A DNA stretch of 64,000 nt from Escherichia coli (GCF_965641715.1 NZ_OZ282453.1); one strand, 5' to 3'. Shown: positions 2,363-55,100, numbered from the stretch's first letter. Notes: a model not told the origin generated them from the sequence alone. Translations and numbers: made by a program.

Positions 2363-3766
2363 ATGAATCAACAGGATATTGAACAGGTGGTGAAAGCGGT
2401 ACTGCTGAAAATGCAAAGCAGTGACACGCCGCCCGCCGCCGTTCATGAGATGGGCGTTTTCGCGTCCCTGGATGACGCTGTTGCGGCAGCCAAAATTGCC
2501 CAGCAAGGGTTAAAGAGCGTGGCAATGCGCCAGTTAGCCATTGCTGCCATTCGTGAAGCAGGCGAAAAACACGCCAGAGATTTAGCGGAACTTGCCGTCA
2601 GTGAAACCGGCATGGGTCGCGTTGAAGATAAATTTGCCAAAAACGTCGCTCAGGCACGCGGCACGCCAGGCGTTGAGTGTCTCTCTCCGCAAGTGCTGAC
2701 GGGCGACAACGGCCTGACTTTAATTGAAAACGCGCCCTGGGGCGTGGTGGCTTCGGTGACGCCGTCCACTAACCCGGCGGCAACCGTAATTAATAACGCC
2801 ATCAGCCTGATTGCCGCGGGCAACAGCGTCATTTTTGCCCCGCATCCGGCGGCGAAAAAAGTCTCCCAGCGGGCGATCACGCTGCTCAACCAGGCGATTG
2901 TTGCCGCAGGCGGGCCGGAAAACTTACTGGTTACTGTGGCAAATCCGGATATCGAAACCGCGCAACGCTTGTTCAAGTTTCCGGGTATCGGCCTGCTGGT
3001 GGTGACCGGCGGCGAAGCGGTAGTAGAAGCGGCGCGTAAACACACCAATAAACGTCTGATTGCCGCAGGCGCTGGCAACCCGCCGGTAGTGGTGGATGAA
3101 ACCGCTGACCTCGCCCGTGCTGCTCAGTCCATCGTCAAAGGCGCGTCTTTCGATAACAACATCATTTGTGCCGACGAAAAGGTACTGATTGTTGTTGATA
3201 GCGTAGCCGATGAACTGATGCGTCTGATGGAAGGCCAGCACGCGGTGAAACTGACCGCAGAACAGGCGCAGCAGCTGCAACCGGTGTTGCTGAAAAATAT
3301 CGACGAGCGCGGAAAAGGCACCGTCAGCCGTGACTGGGTTGGTCGCGACGCAGGCAAAATCGCGGCGGCAATCGGCCTTAAAGTTCCGCAAGAAACGCGC
3401 CTGCTGTTTGTGGAAACCACCGCAGAACATCCGTTTGCCGTGACTGAACTGATGATGCCGGTGTTGCCCGTCGTGCGCGTCGCCAACGTGGCGGATGCCA
3501 TTGCGCTAGCGGTGAAACTGGAAGGCGGTTGCCACCACACGGCGGCAATGCACTCGCGCAACATCGAAAACATGAACCAGATGGCGAATGCTATTGATAC
3601 CAGCATTTTCGTTAAGAACGGACCGTGCATTGCCGGGCTGGGGCTGGGCGGGGAAGGCTGGACCACCATGACCATCACCACGCCAACCGGTGAAGGGGTA
3701 ACCAGCGCGCGTACGTTTGTCCGTCTGCGTCGCTGTGTATTAGTCGATGCGTTTCGCATTGTTTAA
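2363..3766 (+). CDS. eutE: Acetaldehyde dehydrogenase (CoA-acetylating) EutE (467 aa)
   Basis: Aldehyde dehydrogenase family translation, expected length and position. Confidence 0.9.
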   Translation: MNQQDIEQVVKAVLLKMQSSDTPPAAVHEMGVFASLDDAVAAAKIAQQGLKSVAMRQLAIAAIREAGEKHARDLAELAVSETGMGRVEDKFAKNVAQARGTPGVECLSPQVLTGDNGLTLIENAPWGVVASVTPSTNPAATVINNAISLIAAGNSVIFAPHPAAKKVSQRAITLLNQAIVAAGGPENLLVTVANPDIETAQRLFKFPGIGLLVVTGGEAVVEAARKHTNKRLIAAGAGNPPVVVDETADLARAAQSIVKGASFDNNIICADEKVLIVVDSVADELMRLMEGQHAVKLTAEQAQQLQPVLLKNIDERGKGTVSRDWVGRDAGKIAAAIGLKVPQETRLLFVETTAEHPFAVTELMMPVLPVVRVANVADAIALAVKLEGGCHHTAAMHSRNIENMNQMANAIDTSIFVKNGPCIAGLGLGGEGWTTMTITTPTGEGVTSARTFVRLRRCVLVDAFRIV

Positions 3767-4613: not shown

Positions 4614-5790
4614 ATTGCAGACCGCGCTCTTTCAGGCGTTCGATACCCTGAATCTGCAACGGGTAAAAACATTTAGCGTTCCACCGGTGACGCTTTGCGG
4701 TCCGGGCTCGGTGAGCAGTTGCGGACAGCAAGCGCAAACGCGTGGGCTGAAACATCTGTTCGTGATGGCAGACAGCTTTTTGCATCAGGCAGGGATGACC
4801 GCCGGGCTGACGCGTAGCCTGACCGTTAAAGGTATCGCCATGACGCTCTGGCCATGTCCGGTGGGCGAACCGTGCATTACCGACGTGTGTGCAGCCGTGG
4901 CGCAGTTGCGTGAGTCAGGCTGTGATGGGGTGATCGCGTTTGGCGGCGGCTCGGTGCTGGATGCGGCGAAAGCCGTGACGTTGCTGGTGACGAACCCGGA
5001 TAGCACGCTGGCAGAGATGTCAGAAACCAGCGTTCTGCAACCGCGCTTGCCGCTGATTGCCATTCCAACTACCGCCGGAACCGGCTCTGAAACCACCAAT
5101 GTAACGGTGATTATCGACGCGGTGAGCGGGCGCAAGCAGGTGTTAGCCCATGCCTCGCTGATGCCGGATGTGGCGATCCTCGACGCCGCATTGACCGAAG
5201 GTGTGCCGTCGCATGTCACGGCGATGACCGGCATTGATGCGTTAACCCATGCCATTGAAGCATACAGCGCCCTGAACGCTACACCGTTTACCGACAGTCT
5301 GGCGATTGGTGCCATTGCGATGATTGGCAAATCGCTGCCGAAAGCGGTGGGCTACGGTCACGACCTTGCCGCGCGCGAGAGCATGTTGCTGGCTTCATGT
5401 ATGGCGGGAATGGCGTTTTCCAGTGCGGGTCTTGGGTTGTGCCACGCGATGGCGCATCAGCCGGGCGCGGCGCTGCATATTCCGCACGGTCTCGCGAACG
5501 CTATGTTGCTGCCAACGGTGATGGAGTTTAACCGGATGGTTTGTCGTGAACGCTTTAGTCAGATTGGTCGGGCACTGCGAACTAAAAAATCCGACGATCG
5601 TGACGCTATTAACGCGGTAAGTGAGCTGATTGCGGAAGTTGGGATTGGTAAACGACTGGGCGATGTTGGCGCGACATCTGCGCATTACGGTGCATGGGCG
5701 CAGGCCGCGCAGGAAGATATTTGTCTGCGCAGCAACCCGCGTACCGCCAGCCTGGAACAGATTGTCGGACTGTACGCAGCGGCGCAATAA
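4603..5790 (+). CDS. eutG: Alcohol dehydrogenase EutG (395 aa)
   Basis: Iron-containing ADH translation; start placed at ATG 4603 (MQNELQTALF...). Confidence 0.88.
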   Translation: MQNELQTALFQAFDTLNLQRVKTFSVPPVTLCGPGSVSSCGQQAQTRGLKHLFVMADSFLHQAGMTAGLTRSLTVKGIAMTLWPCPVGEPCITDVCAAVAQLRESGCDGVIAFGGGSVLDAAKAVTLLVTNPDSTLAEMSETSVLQPRLPLIAIPTTAGTGSETTNVTVIIDAVSGRKQVLAHASLMPDVAILDAALTEGVPSHVTAMTGIDALTHAIEAYSALNATPFTDSLAIGAIAMIGKSLPKAVGYGHDLAARESMLLASCMAGMAFSSAGLGLCHAMAHQPGAALHIPHGLANAMLLPTVMEFNRMVCRERFSQIGRALRTKKSDDRDAINAVSELIAEVGIGKRLGDVGATSAHYGAWAQAAQEDICLRSNPRTASLEQIVGLYAAAQ

Positions 5791-5792
5791 AT

Positions 5793-5873
5793 GCCGGATG
5801 CGACGCTTGCCGCGTCTTATCCGGCCTACGGGATTGCACATGTAGGGCGGATAAGGCTTCACGCAGCATCCGC
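5793..5873. repeat. REP/BIME-type extragenic palindromic element in eutG-eutH spacer
   Basis: gccggatgcg...cttatccggcctac and inverted partner, typical enterobacterial REP signature. Confidence 0.6.
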
Positions 5874-5905
5874 TAATAAATAACAACTAACAGGGAGTAA
5901 AGGCG

Positions 5906-7132
5906 ATGGGAATTAACGAAATCATCATGTACATCATGATGTTCTTTATGCTGATAGCTGCCGTAGACAGGATCCTGTCGCAGTTCGGCGGTTCTGCTCG
6001 TTTCCTCGGTAAGTTCGGTAAAAGTATCGAAGGATCAGGCGGTCAGTTCGAAGAAGGCTTTATGGCAATGGGCGCACTGGGCCTGGCGATGGTCGGTATG
6101 ACCGCGCTGGCACCGGTACTGGCTCACGTTCTCGGGCCGGTAATTATTCCGGTTTACGAAATGCTCGGCGCTAACCCATCGATGTTCGCCGGAACACTGC
6201 TGGCGTGCGATATGGGCGGCTTCTTCCTCGCCAAAGAGCTGGCGGGCGGCGACGTAGCCGCGTGGCTATACTCTGGGTTAATTCTCGGGTCGATGATGGG
6301 GCCAACGATTGTGTTTTCCATTCCGGTGGCGCTCGGCATTATCGAACCTTCTGACCGTCGTTATCTGGCGCTCGGCGTGCTGGCGGGCATTGTGACCATT
6401 CCGATTGGTTGTATCGCTGGTGGTCTGGTTGCTATGTACTCCGGTGTTCAGATCAACGGCCAGCCGGTGGAATTCACTTTCGCCCTGATCCTGATGAACA
6501 TGATCCCGGTGATCATTGTTGCGATTCTGGTGGCGCTGGGGCTGAAATTCATCCCAGAAAAAATGATCAACGGCTTCCAGATCTTCGCCAAATTCCTCGT
6601 TGCATTGATCACCCTCGGTCTTGCCGCTGCGGTAGTGAAATTCCTGCTTGGCTGGGAACTGATCCCCGGTCTGGATCCTATCTTTATGGCCCCTGGCGAT
6701 AAACCCGGTGAGGTGATGCGCGCCATTGAAGTTATCGGTTCTATCTCCTGCGTTCTGTTAGGGGCGTATCCGATGGTGCTGCTGCTGACCCGCTGGTTTG
6801 AAAAACCGCTGATGAGCGTCGGTAAAGTGCTGAATATGAACAACATCGCGGCAGCCGGCATGGTGGCAACGCTTGCCAACAACATCCCGATGTTCGGCAT
6901 GATGAAGCAGATGGATACCCGCGGCAAAGTCATCAACTGCGCCTTCGCCGTTTCCGCTGCTTTCGCCCTGGGCGACCACTTAGGCTTCGCCGCTGCCAAC
7001 ATGAATGCCATGATCTTCCCGATGATTGTCGGCAAGTTGATCGGCGGCGTAACGGCGATTGGCGTGGCGATGATGCTGGTGCCAAAAGACGACGCGACCG
7101 CGGCTAAAACCGAAGCGGAGGCACAATCGTGA
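5906..7132 (+). CDS. eutH: Ethanolamine permease EutH (408 aa)
   Basis: Polytopic membrane protein translation, expected length and position. Confidence 0.9.
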   Translation: MGINEIIMYIMMFFMLIAAVDRILSQFGGSARFLGKFGKSIEGSGGQFEEGFMAMGALGLAMVGMTALAPVLAHVLGPVIIPVYEMLGANPSMFAGTLLACDMGGFFLAKELAGGDVAAWLYSGLILGSMMGPTIVFSIPVALGIIEPSDRRYLALGVLAGIVTIPIGCIAGGLVAMYSGVQINGQPVEFTFALILMNMIPVIIVAILVALGLKFIPEKMINGFQIFAKFLVALITLGLAAAVVKFLLGWELIPGLDPIFMAPGDKPGEVMRAIEVIGSISCVLLGAYPMVLLLTRWFEKPLMSVGKVLNMNNIAAAGMVATLANNIPMFGMMKQMDTRGKVINCAFAVSAAFALGDHLGFAAANMNAMIFPMIVGKLIGGVTAIGVAMMLVPKDDATAAKTEAEAQS

Positions 7133-8532
7133 ACACTCGCCAGCTACTGAGCGTCGGTATCGATATCGGCACCACCACCACCCAGGTGATTTTCTCCCAC
7201 CTGGAACTGGTTAACCGTGCGGCGGTGTCGCAGGTGCCGCGCTACGAATTCATCAAACGCGAAATTAGCTGGCAAAGCCCGGTGTTCTTTACCCCTGTCG
7301 ATAAACAGGGTGGTTTAAAAGAAGCGGAACTGAAATCGCTGATTTTAGAGCAATATCAGGCTGCGGGCATTGCGCCGGAAAGCGTTGATTCTGGTGCCAT
7401 CATCATCACCGGTGAAAGCGCGAAAACCCGCAATGCTCGCCCGGCGGTGATGGCGCTCTCTCAGTCGCTGGGCGATTTTGTCGTCGCCAGCGCCGGGCCG
7501 CACCTCGAATCCGTGATCGCCGGTCACGGTGCCGGGGCGCAAACCCTTTCTGAACAACGGCTGTGTCGGGTACTGAATATCGACATCGGCGGTGGCACCG
7601 CGAACTACGCCCTGTTCGATGCCGGAAAAATCAGCGGCACTGCCTGCCTCAACGTCGGTGGTCGCCTGCTGGAAACCGACAGCCAGGGGCGCGTGGTTTA
7701 CGCTCATAAACCGGGGCAGATGATTGTGGATGAGTGCTTCGGCGCAGGCACCGATGCCCGTTCGCTGACCGGCGCGCAGCTGGTGCAGGTTACCCGGCGG
7801 ATGGCAGAGCTGATTGTCGAAGTGATTGACGGAACGCTTTCGCCGCTCGCGCAGGCATTAATGCAAACCGGTTTGCTGCCCGCAGGTGTTACGCCCGAAA
7901 TCATTACGCTTTCTGGCGGCGTGGGCGAATGTTATCGCCACCAGCCCGCCGACCCGTTCTGTTTTGCCGATATTGGCCCGCTTCTGGCAACGGCGCTGCA
8001 TGACCATCCGCGCCTGCGTGAGATGAACGTGCAGTTTCCGGCGCAAACCGTGCGCGCCACGGTGATTGGTGCGGGTGCACATACCCTTTCGCTCTCTGGC
8101 AGCACAATCTGGCTGGAGGGCGTACAACTGCCGCTGCGCAATTTGCCGGTGGCGATCCCAATTGATGAAACGGATCTGGTGGGTGCCTGGCAACAGGCGC
8201 TGATTCAGCTGGATCTTGATCCCAAAACTGACGCGTACGTGCTGGCGCTTCCCGCCTCGCTGCCTGTGCGTTACGCCGCGGTACTGACGGTCATCAACGC
8301 GTTGGTCGATTTCGTCGCGCGTTTTCCGAATCCGAATCCCCTGCTGGTGGTGGCCGGGCAGGACTTTGGTAAAGCTCTGGGCATGTTGTTGCGCCCACAG
8401 CTACAACAACTCCCGTTGGCAGTCATTGACGAAGTGATTGTCCGCGCGGGGGACTATATCGACATTGGTACGCCTCTTTTTGGCGGATCGGTTGTGCCGG
8501 TGACGGTGAAATCACTCGCATTTCCTTCCTGA
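7129..8532 (+). CDS. eutA: Ethanolamine ammonia-lyase reactivating factor EutA (467 aa)
   Basis: Translation recognised as EutA; 4-nt overlap with eutH stop. Confidence 0.9.
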   Translation: MNTRQLLSVGIDIGTTTTQVIFSHLELVNRAAVSQVPRYEFIKREISWQSPVFFTPVDKQGGLKEAELKSLILEQYQAAGIAPESVDSGAIIITGESAKTRNARPAVMALSQSLGDFVVASAGPHLESVIAGHGAGAQTLSEQRLCRVLNIDIGGGTANYALFDAGKISGTACLNVGGRLLETDSQGRVVYAHKPGQMIVDECFGAGTDARSLTGAQLVQVTRRMAELIVEVIDGTLSPLAQALMQTGLLPAGVTPEIITLSGGVGECYRHQPADPFCFADIGPLLATALHDHPRLREMNVQFPAQTVRATVIGAGAHTLSLSGSTIWLEGVQLPLRNLPVAIPIDETDLVGAWQQALIQLDLDPKTDAYVLALPASLPVRYAAVLTVINALVDFVARFPNPNPLLVVAGQDFGKALGMLLRPQLQQLPLAVIDEVIVRAGDYIDIGTPLFGGSVVPVTVKSLAFPS

Positions 8533-15398: not shown

Positions 15399-15725
15399 TT
15401 ATTTAAAAGTGCTTATTGACACGCCGAAACGACGACTTAATTCAAAAAGGAGTCGCGCCTTTGCAGTGCCTTCCATGTCTTCCGGCATTTCAGACTGAAG
15501 TTTATCAGCTACTTCATCAACAAGTGGCCGAACCGTTTCCACGAACTTGTCCGCAATATAATCAGCAGAACGCATCACTTTTTCCTGGAATTCCTCACGG
15601 CGTACCTGGGCGGCTGATTTAGGGGCTGTCGTGCGCTGAAAATAACTGTCTAATGAATGCATGGCATCTGCTCCTTTTACTTTGATTGCTGTTATTTCTT
15701 TAATTGTGTTTGCTTTGATTTTCAT
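15399..15725 (-). CDS. Hypothetical island protein (108 aa)
   Basis: ORF with AAGGA RBS; tightly packed after upstream gene. Confidence 0.5.
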   Translation of the reverse strand: MKIKANTIKEITAIKVKGADAMHSLDSYFQRTTAPKSAAQVRREEFQEKVMRSADYIADKFVETVRPLVDEVADKLQSEMPEDMEGTAKARLLFELSRRFGVSISTFK

Positions 15726-15801
15726 GCTGCCTATTCCTTCAGAAATTGCGGTAGTTTGCTTTTTAAATCAATAAGTTATTTGATAATCTCAGTAGCTGTT
15801 T

Positions 15802-15993
15802 TCATTGGTGGCGAGCGCCTTTGTTTTTATAGAATTCCAAAATCTCAGATCGGATAAACTTAATTCTTGAGCCAATCGGACTGACCGGGACGGGCCAGCC
15901 TTTAATCTTGTTCATCCACCGGAATATTGTCCGACGGGTAACGCCGAATAAAGCTGCTACCTCGTTAACCGTCATTAATTCGCTATCATTCAT
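15802..15993 (-). CDS. AlpA/excisionase-family small HTH regulator (63 aa)
   Basis: Translation ...MTVNEVAALFGVTRRTIFRWMNK... matches AlpA-type prophage regulators; typical partner of P4-type integrases. Confidence 0.6.
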   Translation of the reverse strand: MNDSELMTVNEVAALFGVTRRTIFRWMNKIKGWPVPVSPIGSRIKFIRSEILEFYKNKGARHQ

Positions 15994-16280
15994 GTTCTCA
16001 CCTCAAAAAGTAGCGGTGAGGAAAATATGGAGAAAACCCTCACCGCGCCCTGAATGAAATTAAAGACCAACATTACTGTTGATACTTATTATTATATTCC
16101 TCCTGTCCCTGTTTCACATCTTTTACCATATAGTGAAAGGGGATATTCTGTAATGTTTACAAAACTTTTAATTAGCAAAAAATAATTGCGCATCTCACGT
16201 AATGCAGGGATAATATTACTCAAGGGCTGGTTGCCCTTACTCAAAATGTGATCTATAACTACAACGATCTATTTCACTTC

Positions 16281-16307
16281 CCCGCTTTCTCCGGCGGGAT
16301 TTTTTTG
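16281..16307 (+). terminator. Plus-strand intrinsic terminator-like hairpin within 600-bp noncoding stretch
   Basis: cccgc-tttctccg-gcggg followed by a ttttttt. Confidence 0.4.
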
Positions 16308-17122
16308 CCTGCAATCTGGCACCATTGCGCACATTAAAATTAGATGCCATTTAAAAGCGATATAACGCGTTCTGCCGGGCTTAATTTTGGCTATCCACTT
16401 GGAAGGGTAAGCCTGTTTTGATTCGTCTGGCGTGGAATGGTGCGGCGGTAATATCAGATCTCAGCGTTCTGCGTGGTGGGATGAAATAGCCTGGCAGGAT
16501 TTGCGTGTGGTTTGCTCTCCCAAAAAATGGGGTAATGGCGCTGGCTGGATGGCAGGACTCCGCGCTGATTACTGGATGGCTGAAAATTTAATGAAATCGC
16601 ATCAATTTTAATGCGTCTAAATCGCTCTGTGGCGACGTGAAGTTTTCAGGTAAGCAAGTGTAGCTGTGTGGTGTGTTCATCGCGTTACTGGCACCATTCC
16701 GTTCGAATTTGGCGCTATCAGGATGGTTTGCGGTGGTCGGCGGCGGGGATAAACTTGCTTGAGTGGTCACCTCAGCCTGCTGTGCGTCGTGTGATGGTAC
16801 TGTCTGCACCTGGCTATACGCTGCTTTGCTGCTGTTTCCTGTCTGGTCTGTATACGCGATAAAACCCATCGGCTTTACAGTGAGTGAGTTTTTTGCGCTT
16901 TGCTTTCCATTCGGTTTGCTTACTGCTGCTGTGTGTCTGTGCGGTAGCTCAGAAAGCTGTCGATGATAACCATCACTGCCAGACCGTCTTTTGAGCTGGC
17001 GATTGCTCGAAGTCTTCCGAAGGTCCGCTGGGCTTGTTGCTTGTTTGTGTTCTTTTAAAATGCGCGCCTCTTACTTTCTCTTAAAAAGAAAAAAGGAATA
17101 TACAGATCTCATACTATGTGTG

Positions 17123-17273
17123 TCCCAAATGTCACACGTCATGGCCTGACCTGTATCCCAAATGTCACACGTCACCCTCTGACCTGTATCCCAAATGTCA
17201 CACGTACCTGTGTCCCAAATGTCACACGTCTATTGTTAATTAATTGTTGACCTGTGTCTCAAATGTCACACGT
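17123..17273. repeat. Iteron array: five direct copies of TCCCAAATGTCACACGT (fifth TCTCAAATGTCACACGT)
   Basis: Copies start 17123, 17156, 17189, 17213, 17257; AT-rich block tattgttaattaattgttga between copies 4 and 5. Confidence 0.65.
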
Positions 17274-17338
17274 CTGTTGATGGTTTAAGTAATAAAAAGG
17301 GCCACCATTTTAGGTGACCCATTGATGCGTTTTAGTCG

Positions 17339-18103
17339 TTATCTTGCGTTCTCGACCTGAAAAAGCATTCTGTATTTTCTTGCGTGCTGACCAATAACAT
17401 ATTCCCCGTATGGCTCAATGAGTCCTAACTCAACCAGGATTTTCATCTGGCGAATTACGGTGCGGCGATTCATGCCCCATTCATCAGCTATTTTTGCCTG
17501 GCAAACTTCAGATACATAAGATCCATCATTCTGCTTTCTTGCTGCTGATGCAATGCTGGATAATACGCTCCAGGCTGTAGCTTTAGCTTTATTCTCGCAA
17601 CCACTTCTGACAAATGCCTTACGTGCCGCACCCAAACAGACATAACTGCAATAAATTCCTTTTTCTTCCGTTTGGTATTGTGTCTCTTTATCCTGCATGG
17701 CTTCCGGTTCTTCCGGCGCTTCCTGCTGTGGTGCTGTCTGCGAAGTTTTAGCGGCCATACTGCGTAGCTCGTTCACGATATCAGTAGCTGATTTCTTCTC
17801 GCTTTTAGTTTCCTGCGTGACTGATAAATACTCACCTTGTAACGCCAGGAAGTCAGCGCGGGCGTTTGCCTGGCTTTGTTCTGGTGATTCAGGTTCTGCA
17901 TCGGCAGGTGATGAAATCGGTGATACACGCGCCCAGCCTGTTTTGGCGTTGCATTCCCAGCGATAACCATTAAAGCGGATATCATTCAGGCCATCATCAA
18001 TGGCGCTCCGTACTTCTTCCGGGATCGCGTCGATTTTCTGAAGGCTGTGTTTACCGAGTGATTCGCCTTGCCGTGGGGCGTAGGCGGTTGGTAAAATATT
18101 CAT
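17339..18103 (-). CDS. Putative winged-HTH DNA-binding protein, candidate replication initiator or regulator (254 aa)
   Basis: C-terminal HTH-like segment ...GMNRRTVIRQMKILVELGLIE...; perfect AAGGAGA RBS; iterons immediately 3' of gene. Confidence 0.5.
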   Translation of the reverse strand: MNILPTAYAPRQGESLGKHSLQKIDAIPEEVRSAIDDGLNDIRFNGYRWECNAKTGWARVSPISSPADAEPESPEQSQANARADFLALQGEYLSVTQETKSEKKSATDIVNELRSMAAKTSQTAPQQEAPEEPEAMQDKETQYQTEEKGIYCSYVCLGAARKAFVRSGCENKAKATAWSVLSSIASAARKQNDGSYVSEVCQAKIADEWGMNRRTVIRQMKILVELGLIEPYGEYVIGQHARKYRMLFQVENAR

Positions 18104-18349: not shown

Positions 18350-19555
18350 TCACGGCTCCAGCGGATTACCGCCACCAGCCAATATCTGGTCGATGGCGTC
18401 GCTGTAGTCCTGCATCATGGCCCGCCGTTGCTTCAGATAGGCCGCCTGGTTATAAACGCCGCGCACACCTTTCGGAACGTGGGCCAGTTGGATTTCGATC
18501 CAGTCTGGTGAGTATCTGCCGTACTCGTTAAGTGCGGTTGAAAAGGTGGTTCGCCAGCCGTGACCAGTGGCTATCGACTTGTATCCGATACGCTCCAGGG
18601 CTTTAAGGATGGCACTGGCTGAAAGTGGCTTATCCATGAATCGACCAGGGAACACAAAAGCACTGTATCCGCTGCGGGTAAACTGGTCCTGTAATAGCTC
18701 GACCGCCTGCCGGGATAGCGGGACCACATGCGGGCGGCGGGCCTTCATGACTTCAGCGGGTAGGGTGATGGTTGCCGATTCCAGATCTACCCACTCCCAG
18801 CGCATTAAACGCAGTTCTGCGGTCCTTAGGGCGCTTAATATAAGCAAACGTATTGCCGTCTGAATCTGAACGCTCCCGGCTCTCTCAAGGGCTTTGTAGA
18901 AGGCCGGGATTTCGTTAATTTGTATCCATGCGTTATGGCCTGGGCGTCGGGCTTTCAATGCCGTGTCCAGATCTGCAACCGGATTTCGGTTAACCAGTTC
19001 AGTGATAACGGCAAATTTGAAGATTTCCCCTATACGCTGCCGTAATTTTCGGGCCTGTTCCGGCGCGGTGCGCTCTTTCTTCTGAAGCAATGCCAGCACG
19101 TCACGGGCCGTTATATCGACAATCGACCGCTTGCCAAGTACCGGATAAACATCTTTCTCCAGTGCCGATCTAACTTGTTTCGTGTAAGACTCAGACCAAC
19201 CGCTCACTCTGGTAGCAAACCAGTCTTCCGCTACCGTCTTAAAACTTGCCGCCATGTTGAGCGCATCAATGGCTTTCTCCTTGCGCGCTTCTTCCATTGG
19301 GTCAATTCCCTGGGCGATGAGTAAACGGCTCTCTGTGGCGCGTTTACGTGCTTCCTTCAAGGTAATCAGCGGATATACCCCAATAGCCTGTAACCGCTCT
19401 TTCTTGTCTATCCAGTACCGGAATCGCCAGTATTTGCTGCCATTGGGATGTACCAGCAAGAACAGGCCAGGTGTCTGTGAATCGGTGAGTTTGTAGGGCT
19501 TGTCCTTCGGCTGGGCGGCCTCTATGCCCTTTGCTGTCAGTGGTGTCTTGCTCAA
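18350..19555 (-). CDS. Tyrosine-type site-specific integrase, P4-like family (401 aa, TTG start)
   Basis: Translation ...GLFLLVHPNGSKYWRFRYWIDKKERLQAIGVYP... typical N-terminal arm-binding region of P4-type integrases; located at island edge. Confidence 0.85.
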   Translation of the reverse strand: MSKTPLTAKGIEAAQPKDKPYKLTDSQTPGLFLLVHPNGSKYWRFRYWIDKKERLQAIGVYPLITLKEARKRATESRLLIAQGIDPMEEARKEKAIDALNMAASFKTVAEDWFATRVSGWSESYTKQVRSALEKDVYPVLGKRSIVDITARDVLALLQKKERTAPEQARKLRQRIGEIFKFAVITELVNRNPVADLDTALKARRPGHNAWIQINEIPAFYKALERAGSVQIQTAIRLLILSALRTAELRLMRWEWVDLESATITLPAEVMKARRPHVVPLSRQAVELLQDQFTRSGYSAFVFPGRFMDKPLSASAILKALERIGYKSIATGHGWRTTFSTALNEYGRYSPDWIEIQLAHVPKGVRGVYNQAAYLKQRRAMMQDYSDAIDQILAGGGNPLEP

Positions 19556-19743
19556 AACCGGATACCTCGATCTAACGACTCGATAACCCCGCTCATGTAT
19601 CCGTCGCGTTCGGTTGCGTTCGGCAGGATAAGTAACGGGCGTATTAAGTGGAACACCTTACAGGACAAGGGATAACGATGAAATAGAATTGTTCGAATGC
19701 TGTGAAAAATGTTACTCATCACTTCTTCCTGAGGGAACGACTT

Positions 19744-51812: not shown

Positions 51813-51888
51813 TGGTGGGTCGTGCAGGATTCGAACCTGCGACCAATTGATTAAAAGTCAACTGCTCTACCAACTGAGCTAACGACCC
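51813..51888 (-). tRNA. lysV: tRNA-Lys (anticodon UUU)
   Basis: 76-nt cloverleaf; reverse complement reads GGGTCGTTAGCTCAGTTGGTAGAGCAGTTGACTTTTAATCAATTGGTCGCAGGTTCGAATCCTGCACGACCCACCA. Confidence 0.95.
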
Positions 51889-51892
51889 GAAG

Positions 51893-51968
51893 TGGTGGGT
51901 GATGACGGGATCGAACCGCCGACCCCCTCCTTGTAAGGGAGGTGCTCTCCCAGCTGAGCTAATCACCC
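51893..51968 (-). tRNA. valY: tRNA-Val (anticodon UAC)
   Basis: 76-nt tRNA, anticodon loop CTTACAA on coding strand; identical to the other two copies. Confidence 0.95.
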
Positions 51969-52014
51969 ACTTCGGTACTTCACATTGTTACAAGAAATTT
52001 AGCTGGCGAGAAAG

Positions 52015-52090
52015 TGGTGGGTGATGACGGGATCGAACCGCCGACCCCCTCCTTGTAAGGGAGGTGCTCTCCCAGCTGAGCTAATCACCC
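52015..52090 (-). tRNA. valX: tRNA-Val (anticodon UAC)
   Basis: Identical copy. Confidence 0.95.
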
Positions 52091-52134
52091 ACTTCTCAAT
52101 TTCTTGCTACACGGCGGAGACTACATAAAGTAGT

Positions 52135-52210
52135 TGGTGGGTGATGACGGGATCGAACCGCCGACCCCCTCCTTGTAAGGGAGGTGCTCTCCCAGCTGAG
52201 CTAATCACCC
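52135..52210 (-). tRNA. valU: tRNA-Val (anticodon UAC)
   Basis: Identical copy, first gene of operon. Confidence 0.95.
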
Positions 52211-54909: not shown

Positions 54910-54985
<76 letters not shown>

Positions 54986-55024
54986 AATTTTGCACCCAGC
55001 AAATTTGGTACGTAAACGCATCGT

Positions 55025-55100
<76 letters not shown>

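Follow-up and report, generated by a model that had tools for sequence, protein, structure and literature searches.

The c4 RNA of the phages P1 and P7 (acting on ant/icd), the sar RNA of phage P22 (ant) and the FinP RNA of the F plasmid (traJ) are antisense repressors, which occlude the ribosome-binding site of their target. The CI RNA of the satellite phage P4 is cut from the leader of the transcript that it controls and pairs with seqA and seqC, so that transcription terminates early. In the Vibrio cholerae satellite PLE, the trans-acting sRNA SviR, which is induced during ICP1 infection, pairs with the satellite's own mRNAs as well as, via separate seeds, with mRNAs of the phage (Dunham, Angermeyer and Seed, bioRxiv 10.1101/2022.04.08.487710). 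Among the PICIs, EcCICFT073 carries int and alpA on one strand and uses AlpA as a helper-phage-induced activator, with no protein repressor known (Fillol-Salom et al. 2018, PMC6092414). Related islands are described as using AlpA in the same way (PMC6092414, PMC11773190); according to the founding study, alpA-type islands have no known global repressor, and the inducer of alpA on the side of the helper phage was still to be found (PMC6092414).

The window, i.e. the whole stretch of 64,000 nucleotides of Escherichia coli DNA that was analysed (NZ_OZ282453.1), contains an island between eutA and eutB, in which a short non-coding locus lies back-to-back with an alpA-like gene (Table 1). This locus in all likelihood represents a genuine, previously undescribed gene family. 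The evidence further leans, if only slightly, towards 16186-16306 being an independently transcribed sRNA of ~86 nt, which would belong to the regulatory core of the int/alpA islands at the CPZ-55 site and repress translation behind alpA; transcription, repression and a role in island quiescence are what we infer from the comparisons given below. The locus thus constitutes a concrete candidate for post-transcriptional control of alpA-type Gram-negative islands. If this is confirmed, PLE with SviR would no longer be the only satellite family that uses an sRNA in trans, these islands being the second one, and an unannotated RNA gene would be added to ~3% of complete E. coli genomes. In the literature searched, the core sequence of the RNA occurs in no paper, and no sRNA beside alpA is reported for PICI-like islands.

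Like SviR, the island sRNA is encoded by a phage satellite and conserved in all element variants, and pairing with mRNAs of the own element is common to SviR and the prediction made here. On the contrary, the two RNAs lack sequence similarity and belong to different hosts and satellite families, and SviR has experimental support, whereas the island sRNA is predicted from its sequence. With c4, sar and FinP it would share the nature of a short structured RNA of a mobile element, directed at the SD or start of a gene at the head of a cascade and keeping the element quiescent or immune. However, sar and FinP are encoded in cis, overlapping the genes that they repress, and c4 is processed from the same operon, while the island sRNA comes with a promoter of its own, points away from its predicted target at a distance of ~430 bp and has no Rfam match. 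P4 resembles the island in its AlpA/Vis-type regulator and tyrosine integrase and in having an RNA instead of a protein as repressor, as is proposed for the island. Unlike CI RNA, though, the island sRNA is a separate divergent gene with a predicted translation block and without similarity in sequence or structure; immunity of the P4 type was rejected in view of the own promoter, the orientation divergent from the operon and a complementarity to the alpA leader that is no better than that of shuffled sequences. The analogy to the small RNAs of P4, drawn in an earlier note on this DNA, consequently holds as a functional likeness only, since the locus is similar to no Rfam family, phage antisense RNAs included. 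As to EcCICFT073-type PICIs, the one-strand order of int and alpA is shared with the window island and no sRNA has been reported for them; the eut-locus family differs by its eut site, by the lack of a recognisable primase-replicase and by carrying an HNH endonuclease and a tape-measure protein.

In K-12, the site between eutA and eutB is held by the cryptic prophage CPZ-55, which has neither alpA nor the sRNA. Gram-negative PICIs were characterized by int and alpA, a primase-replicase with adjacent ori, genes for packaging redirection, a size of ~10-15 kb and a specific att site. Of these traits, the window island, all genes of which lie on the minus strand, exhibits int, alpA, the size of ~11 kb and the fixed eutA/eutB site, and its relatives carry terminase-small-subunit-like and HNH genes. 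A primase-replicase was not recognised in the window island, where an HTH_36/replication-initiator-like ORF with iterons is found instead: five direct repeats TGTRTCCCAAATGTCACACGTC occupy 17119-17285 just downstream of this 254-aa ORF and are probably the island's iteron-type origin. The tape-measure protein comprises 730-790 aa in the window island and its relatives (the copy of locus L035 spans 5368-7560), matching phrog_1538 with E = 8e-112 and 2e-102. No further recognisable tail or head genes accompany it, so that it is an unusual cargo for a satellite-like int/alpA element. In some island variants, a type II toxin gene of the YafO family lies between integrase and sRNA, on the opposite strand (L004 4546-5025; L005 4205-4684). 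Elsewhere in the window, six tRNA genes form two clusters at 51816-52210 (minus strand) and 54910-55097 (plus strand), with Rfam scores of 63-79 bits.

Table 1. Features of the sRNA locus and of the surrounding island in the window
Feature	Position	Strand	Remarks
eutA (end)	8532		left border of the ~11-kb island
Tail tape-measure protein, 788 aa	11357-13723	-	phrog_1538
Regulator-like and anti-repressor-like proteins		-	remaining island genes
Four small ORFs of unassigned role		-	beyond the alpA-like gene
Initiation region of the gene after alpA (108-aa ORF 15399-15725)	15726-15760	-	not complementary to the sRNA
alpA-like gene, 63 aa, HTH_17	15802-15993	-	Pfam PF12728, E = 7e-9; phrog_66 excisionase/regulator
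alpA leader hairpin and U-run	16003-16046	-	GCGGUGAGG ... CCUCACCGC (16013-16046), then CUACUUUUU, directly 5' of the SD GAGGUGAG
Probable alpA promoter	16091-16119	-	ATGTGA, 17 bp, TATAAT
sRNA promoter	16186-16214	+	-35 TTGCGC 16186-16191, 17-bp spacer, -10 GATAAT 16209-16214
Predicted primary transcript, ~86 nt	16221-16306	+	start inferred 7 nt past the -10; end within the T-run
5' stem-loop SL1	16222-16238	+	AAGGGC-TGGTT-GCCCTT
Seed CUCAAAAUGUGAUCU, predicted single-stranded	16240-16254	+	form in relatives (G/A)CCUCAAAAUGUGAUC
Invariant core AUAACUACAACGAU, 14 nt	16255-16268	+	defined by conservation
Rho-independent terminator	16281-16306	+	CCCGCT-TTCTCC-GGCGGG (16281-16298), A, T7 (16300-16306)
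Conserved non-coding block	16308-16432	.	directly after the sRNA terminator; 115-140 bp
93-aa ORF		-	between the 254-aa ORF and the 600-bp gap holding the sRNA locus
HTH_36/replication-initiator-like protein, 254 aa	17339-18103	-
Tyrosine integrase	18350-19555	-
Integrase initiation region, weak candidate target	19547-19574	-	GUUUUGAGCAAG 19547-19558; start codon UUG 19553-19555; UAGAUCG 19568-19574
eutB (start)	19702		right border of the island

A 5' hairpin, an unstructured stretch, a U-rich segment and a Rho-independent terminator make up the usual layout of enterobacterial base-pairing sRNAs, and a long U-tail together with a U-rich stretch ahead of the terminator fits the known Hfq-binding module. 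In the island sRNA, the terminator consists of a 6-bp stem, a 6-nt loop, an A and U7, with the U-rich UAUUUCACUU just before it. The features of the Hfq module that are visible in the sequence alone are this U-rich segment, the terminator and the U7-U9 tail, and Hfq may take part in the action of the sRNA. Likewise, the length, which lies within the 50-300 nt expected, the own promoter and the Rho-independent terminator with its long U-tail correspond to the layout of a trans-acting sRNA. The earlier note had set out a promoter TTGCGC-17-GATAAT at 16186-16214, a hairpin at about 16222-16238 and a terminator with T7 at 16281-16307, all of which proved exact to the base; its statement that 15994-16587 contains no ORF of at least 60 aa was confirmed as well, the longest ORF found at the gap being one of 59 aa (16432-16611).

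Considered on their own, promoter and terminator signals do not clearly exceed chance. The terminator was located by the scanner and is unidirectional, as its minus-strand side has no T-run, and four terminator-like sites were seen versus 2.7 expected in the terminator scan. The promoter reaches 8/12, which is below the scanner threshold of 9/12, and hence was not called in the window, and a looser scan returned nine plus-strand matches of at least 8/12 inside 660 bp. For the predicted 87-nt transcript, the fold has an energy of -23.4 kcal/mol (z = -3.05), which one of 200 shuffled sequences equals. It is the comparison with relatives that raises the locus above chance, because the promoter spacing is kept and both hairpins still pair. 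Against this background, there is hardly any probability left for the view that no functional unit exists and that a terminator, with a fortuitous promoter match beside it, has been conserved through recent kinship. Such matches are indeed frequent at a score of 8/12, many copies are 95-99% identical and two strains have lost or disrupted the gene; nevertheless, versions of ~72% identity keep all elements, the flanking modules have been swapped by recombination, and the two stems vary yet pair.

Homologues of the sRNA segment were found in 186 of 5426 complete E. coli genomes, once per genome and with 72-100% identity, in 25 metagenome contigs and, as a diverged copy, on the 9-kb circular record CP057168.1 (L051). 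From E. coli genomes, metagenomes and this circular element, 24 distinct versions were gathered, which bears out strongly the conservation among related islands on which the earlier note had made its case depend. The -10 hexamer GATAAT is kept in all 24 versions and the -35 reads TTGC(G/A)(C/A) in 23 of them (TTGTAT in L007), with a 17-bp spacing that is constant throughout while the letters of the spacer vary; in the relative L008 the promoter is called by the scanner. The covariance model R1 retrieves 36 homologues at 104-139 bits and a copy truncated by IS5 (L010) at 71.5 bits. The surrounding DNA is a recombination mosaic, in which the query blocks 1-209 and 251-524 are found independently and the sRNA gene is kept as a unit. 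Among the databases searched, homologues are confined to eut-site islands and the one circular element: two scans of IMG/VR gave none, and two sequence patterns run against species-representative genomes of other taxa yielded 0 matches and 15 clearly random matches, respectively. Two natural knock-outs occur. In strain AW1.7, an IS5 copy (L010 1976-3017) removes the promoter and SL1, and strain MMC-J-0105 (L054 ~3700-3715) has lost the sRNA gene through a deletion that extends from the promoter spacer into the DNA beyond the gene. Moreover, ~109 Klebsiella T1-like phages (Webervirus) carry 32 nt with 90% identity to the 3' half of the terminator and the following GCCTGCAATCTGG; the match, which joins window 16289-16319 to 1501-1532 of L052 (Klebsiella phage Domnhall), just upstream of the small terminase gene, may be due to chance (E-value 0.6).

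Covariance analysis, which had been proposed in the note, supports both hairpins. The stem of SL1 occurs in at least six different sequences, all of which pair (AAGGGC/GCCCUU, AAGGG/CCCUU, GAGGAU/AUCCUC and GAGGU/GCCUC, furthermore GA-GGUU/AACC-UC, AAGGAUU/AAUCCUU and GAGG/CCUC), and five of six SL1 pairs have changed on both sides. Overall, two-sided changes affect six pairs, including the third stem pair of the terminator, which is swapped from C:G to A:U in 7 of 37 sequences. In the R1-based alignment, 82.5% of the cells pair, compared with 28-50% when the partners are slid, and the covariation score amounts to 0.201 versus 0.117 for shuffles (0 of 500 reach 0.201) and at most 0.10 for slid partners, figures that are supportive but constitute no formal probability, as R1 itself shaped the alignment and the sequences share a common descent. 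From the same alignment, RNAalifold recovered the terminator only; SL1 is missed because its length varies, and its support therefore rests on the individual folds and the pair counts. Between the hairpins, ~40 nt in the middle of the RNA are largely unstructured, A/U-rich and conserved, and the terminator ends in U7-U9 in the various versions.

Affiliation with other RNA classes was not found. At gathering thresholds, Rfam 15 gave only the six tRNA matches in the whole window, and a permissive scan of 15500-17400 remained at chance level (GcvB with 17.7 bits versus 42 needed, LhrC with 26.6 versus 110), so that the Rfam check put forward in the earlier note produced no family. A type I toxin-antitoxin system, which would call for a small hydrophobic toxin ORF overlapping or adjoining the RNA, was dismissed, the small ORFs nearby not being conserved, and for want of such conservation a coding role of the region was likewise dismissed: these ORFs comprise 43 aa on the plus strand (16054-16185), in a region taken by unrelated sequence in other island types, and 37 aa on the minus strand (16237-16350), in a reading frame that is broken in the L007 type. 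A cis-encoded antisense RNA of the sar, FinP or OOP type was rejected too, as no minus-strand ORF of at least 60 aa overlaps 16186-16307. Of the orientation assigned in the note, antisense and divergent to the island genes, the second part stands with respect to alpA, while the first does not, no annotated gene being overlapped; the probable alpA promoter (16091-16119) lies downstream of the sRNA gene in the minus-strand sense, and overlap of the sRNA with read-through RNA is possible.

The predicted target emerged from a k-mer scan of all loci for complementarity to the sRNA. A single match recurs, on the gene strand and ~420-440 bp from the sRNA, namely (G)ATCACATTT(T)GAGG followed by ATG 7-9 nt later, and it coincides with the translation-initiation region of the gene directly behind alpA. 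In the mRNA, the site takes the form 5'-(G)AUCACAUUU(U)GAGG-N7-9-AUG and is the reverse complement of the sRNA segment (G/A)CCUCAAAAUGUGAUC, which is located just 3' of SL1. This complement of 13-15 nt at the SD of the next gene is present in L005-L009, L028, L030, L032, L035, L038, L044, L047 and L049, and in these 13 loci the gene encodes an HNH endonuclease-like protein. In L003, L004, L026 and L036, an unrelated gene at the same position is preceded by CCACAUUUAAGAGG, with a complement of 7+3/4 nt. The duplex of the sRNA with the SD region is strongest in L008, which pairs at 14/14 nt with -22.6 kcal/mol and z = -6.9, and the remaining pairs lie between -11.1 and -20.8 kcal/mol (z = -2.4 to -5.9); for 11 of 13 such pairs none of 300 shuffles is as good. 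At the target, UCACAUUUGAGG is nearly constant while its flanks differ between island types, and the alpA-HNH junction of the HNH-type island in E. coli ATCC 8739 (NC_010468.1, island around 1,354,950-1,355,090) reads AUCACAUUUGAGG-N-AUG. Where seed and target differ, a one-nucleotide bulge (AAAA versus UUU) or a C·A mismatch results, and there are no clean compensatory changes. L051, where the HNH gene overlaps the stop of alpA, offers no free initiation region for it, and the sRNA of this element has lost GUGAUCU. Helper phages as bearers of the target were considered as well: among enterobacterial phages no homologue of the HNH protein was found, only Caulobacter phages having one, at 30% identity.

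The complementarity of the seed to the SD points to translational repression. A sigma-70-type promoter would drive the sRNA back-to-back with the alpA promoter, and the exposed seed would pair around the SD of the gene immediately behind alpA, usually the HNH endonuclease heading an operon that includes the tape-measure protein; as the pairing covers the SD, ribosome binding should be blocked. The operon behind alpA would then remain silent until induced alpA transcription outruns the sRNA; with AlpA as an activator that the helper phage turns on, the sRNA would set the threshold for the island. The proposal of a plus-strand regulatory RNA of ~85 nt, made in the earlier note, is thereby supported by conservation, covariation and SD complementarity in most relatives. 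The same letters could, however, be read as DNA. According to this alternative, which we consider very unlikely, the 14-bp direct repeat CCTCAAAATGTGAT, together with ATAAC-N4/5-CGAT, provides operators for AlpA or another island protein and the hairpins end stray transcription. Of CCTCAAAATGTGAT, one copy lies in the sRNA and one at the gene that follows alpA, and on DNA the two indeed form a direct repeat; most variants contain a core-like motif, ATAACGGCGCGAT, within the promoter spacer, and AlpA is a DNA-binding, autoregulating activator (PMC6092414; PMC11773190). Yet only two copies of CCTCAAAATGTGAT exist per island, neither of them at a promoter, and operators would leave unexplained the promoter spacing, the covarying 5' hairpin and the exact cover of an SD on the opposite coding strand.

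On the alpA side, the arrangement is equally stable. The sRNA gene stands back-to-back with the alpA-like gene in every locus with enough flanking sequence, across three very different alpA alleles. The -10 of the alpA promoter is kept in relatives, and its equivalent in L008 was called by the scanner (TTGAAC-17-TAAAAT). In the window, ~70 bp separate the alpA promoter from the -35 of the sRNA, so that the two promoters point away from each other and the alpA mRNA shares no stretch with the sRNA. All 18 versions of the alpA leader fold as a GC-rich hairpin with a U-run; the letters of the stem differ and most loops keep CCAUAUUU. This hairpin looks like a transcription attenuator or a translational operator and could be the point at which the helper phage switches alpA on. 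Pairing of the sRNA with the alpA leader or SD was discarded, being no better than for shuffles in eight island types, and a possible kissing contact of AAAAUGUG with CAUAUUUU, the conserved loop of the leader, shows no covariation with the sRNA variants; the alpA SD region UUUUGAGG of the window offers a 7-nt match to the sRNA.

The position between alpA and the genes upstream of it is the basis of a further interpretation, in which the locus is a cis insulator: converging transcription, or a duplex with read-through RNA, would keep upstream minus-strand transcripts off alpA, and the sequence of the RNA would matter little. In L003, L004 and L009, an upstream minus-strand gene does end 25-35 nt from the sRNA terminator without a terminator of its own, the sRNA terminator is inactive in the minus direction, and accidental alpA expression is costly in related islands, given that AlpA overexpression in EcCICFT073 results in uncontrolled replication (PMC6092414). 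Other variants such as L008, on the other hand, possess a good terminator of the upstream gene ~140 bp before the sRNA gene, and insulation accounts neither for the near-invariant single-stranded core nor for a complement of 13-15 nt at a distant SD, which makes this interpretation decidedly improbable.

In the island of the window itself, another gene has taken the place behind alpA and the family target site is gone, the sRNA gene being intact. In the entire 64-kb window, the target motif is absent at up to three mismatches, apart from the antisense strand of the sRNA itself, and the sRNA gives -13.9 kcal/mol and z = -1.1 with the initiation region of the next gene. The copy in the window is less important for this reason. 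Islands of its type, one carrier of which is strain USDA-ARS-USMARC-49610 (NZ_CP104123.1), are the commonest among complete genomes, and an intact sRNA in an island without the target implies that the family target cannot be the whole function of the RNA. The integrase start codon is a weak candidate for a target of the window sRNA. It was the best of 55 ORF initiation regions scanned in the island: its GUUUUGAGCAAG pairs with CUUACUCAAAAU of the sRNA at 11 of 12 positions and UAGAUCG pairs with CGAUCUA, in part through the SL1 stem. For the five window-type versions, the duplex reaches -22.2 to -24.3 versus about -16 to -18 in shuffles (p = 0.013-0.143; at most 0.043 in four of five), so that significance is nominal at best, and for other sRNA types the integrase pairing is not significant against shuffles. 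Scans of the whole island with the full sRNA gave mostly unrealistic long-loop duplexes, and the integrase site alone recurred. The window sRNA would most likely still act via the CUCAAAA part of its seed; either the RNA is partly orphaned, or it works through this short seed or through the second conserved segment, the core.

The core AUAACUACAACGAU is the most conserved segment of the RNA, being unchanged in 22 of 24 versions (position 6 is U instead of C in L006, position 7 C instead of U in L051), and lies outside the proposed SD pairing. No recurrent partner site emerged when all loci were scanned with 9-mers, the long loci with 8-mers and the alpA operon for duplexes, and a recurrent TCGTTGTAG match in eutB was rejected for having the same sense as the sRNA. 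By analogy to SviR of PLE, the core could be directed at a helper phage or at the host, or else serve to bind a protein. This leads to the reading that the RNA is real but has its main job on a host or helper-phage transcript, reached via the core in the manner of SviR, with pairing inside the own island being secondary. In its favor, the most conserved part has no partner inside the islands, window-type islands retain the sRNA without an in-island target, and a satellite sRNA acting on both genomes has a precedent (bioRxiv 10.1101/2022.04.08.487710). The core might, however, be a binding site for Hfq or another protein instead, and we rate such a main job as rather unlikely compared with the repression behind alpA outlined above. 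A bolder extension of this repression, which must be called doubtful, sees in the sRNA the missing 'master repressor' of the alpA-type satellite: made constitutively, it would hold the lytic/packaging operon, and in some variants the integrase, below threshold until the helper boosts alpA, while AUAACUACAACGAU would act as a second seed on helper or host. If so, the switch between satellite and helper would be RNA-based rather than protein-based.

Directly behind the sRNA terminator, the conserved non-coding block is present in all 26 distinct downstream versions, including that of the 9-kb circular element. It sits between the terminator of the upstream gene and that of the sRNA, its indels break reading frames, and no promoter was predicted within it in L008; it might be an origin or a packaging site, or encode a further RNA. 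The circular element itself (L051; CP057168.1, 9003 bp), annotated as an E. coli plasmid, combines an alpA-like gene, HNH, sRNA and the conserved block with a serine recombinase in place of the tyrosine integrase, and may be an episomal or excised form of the island.
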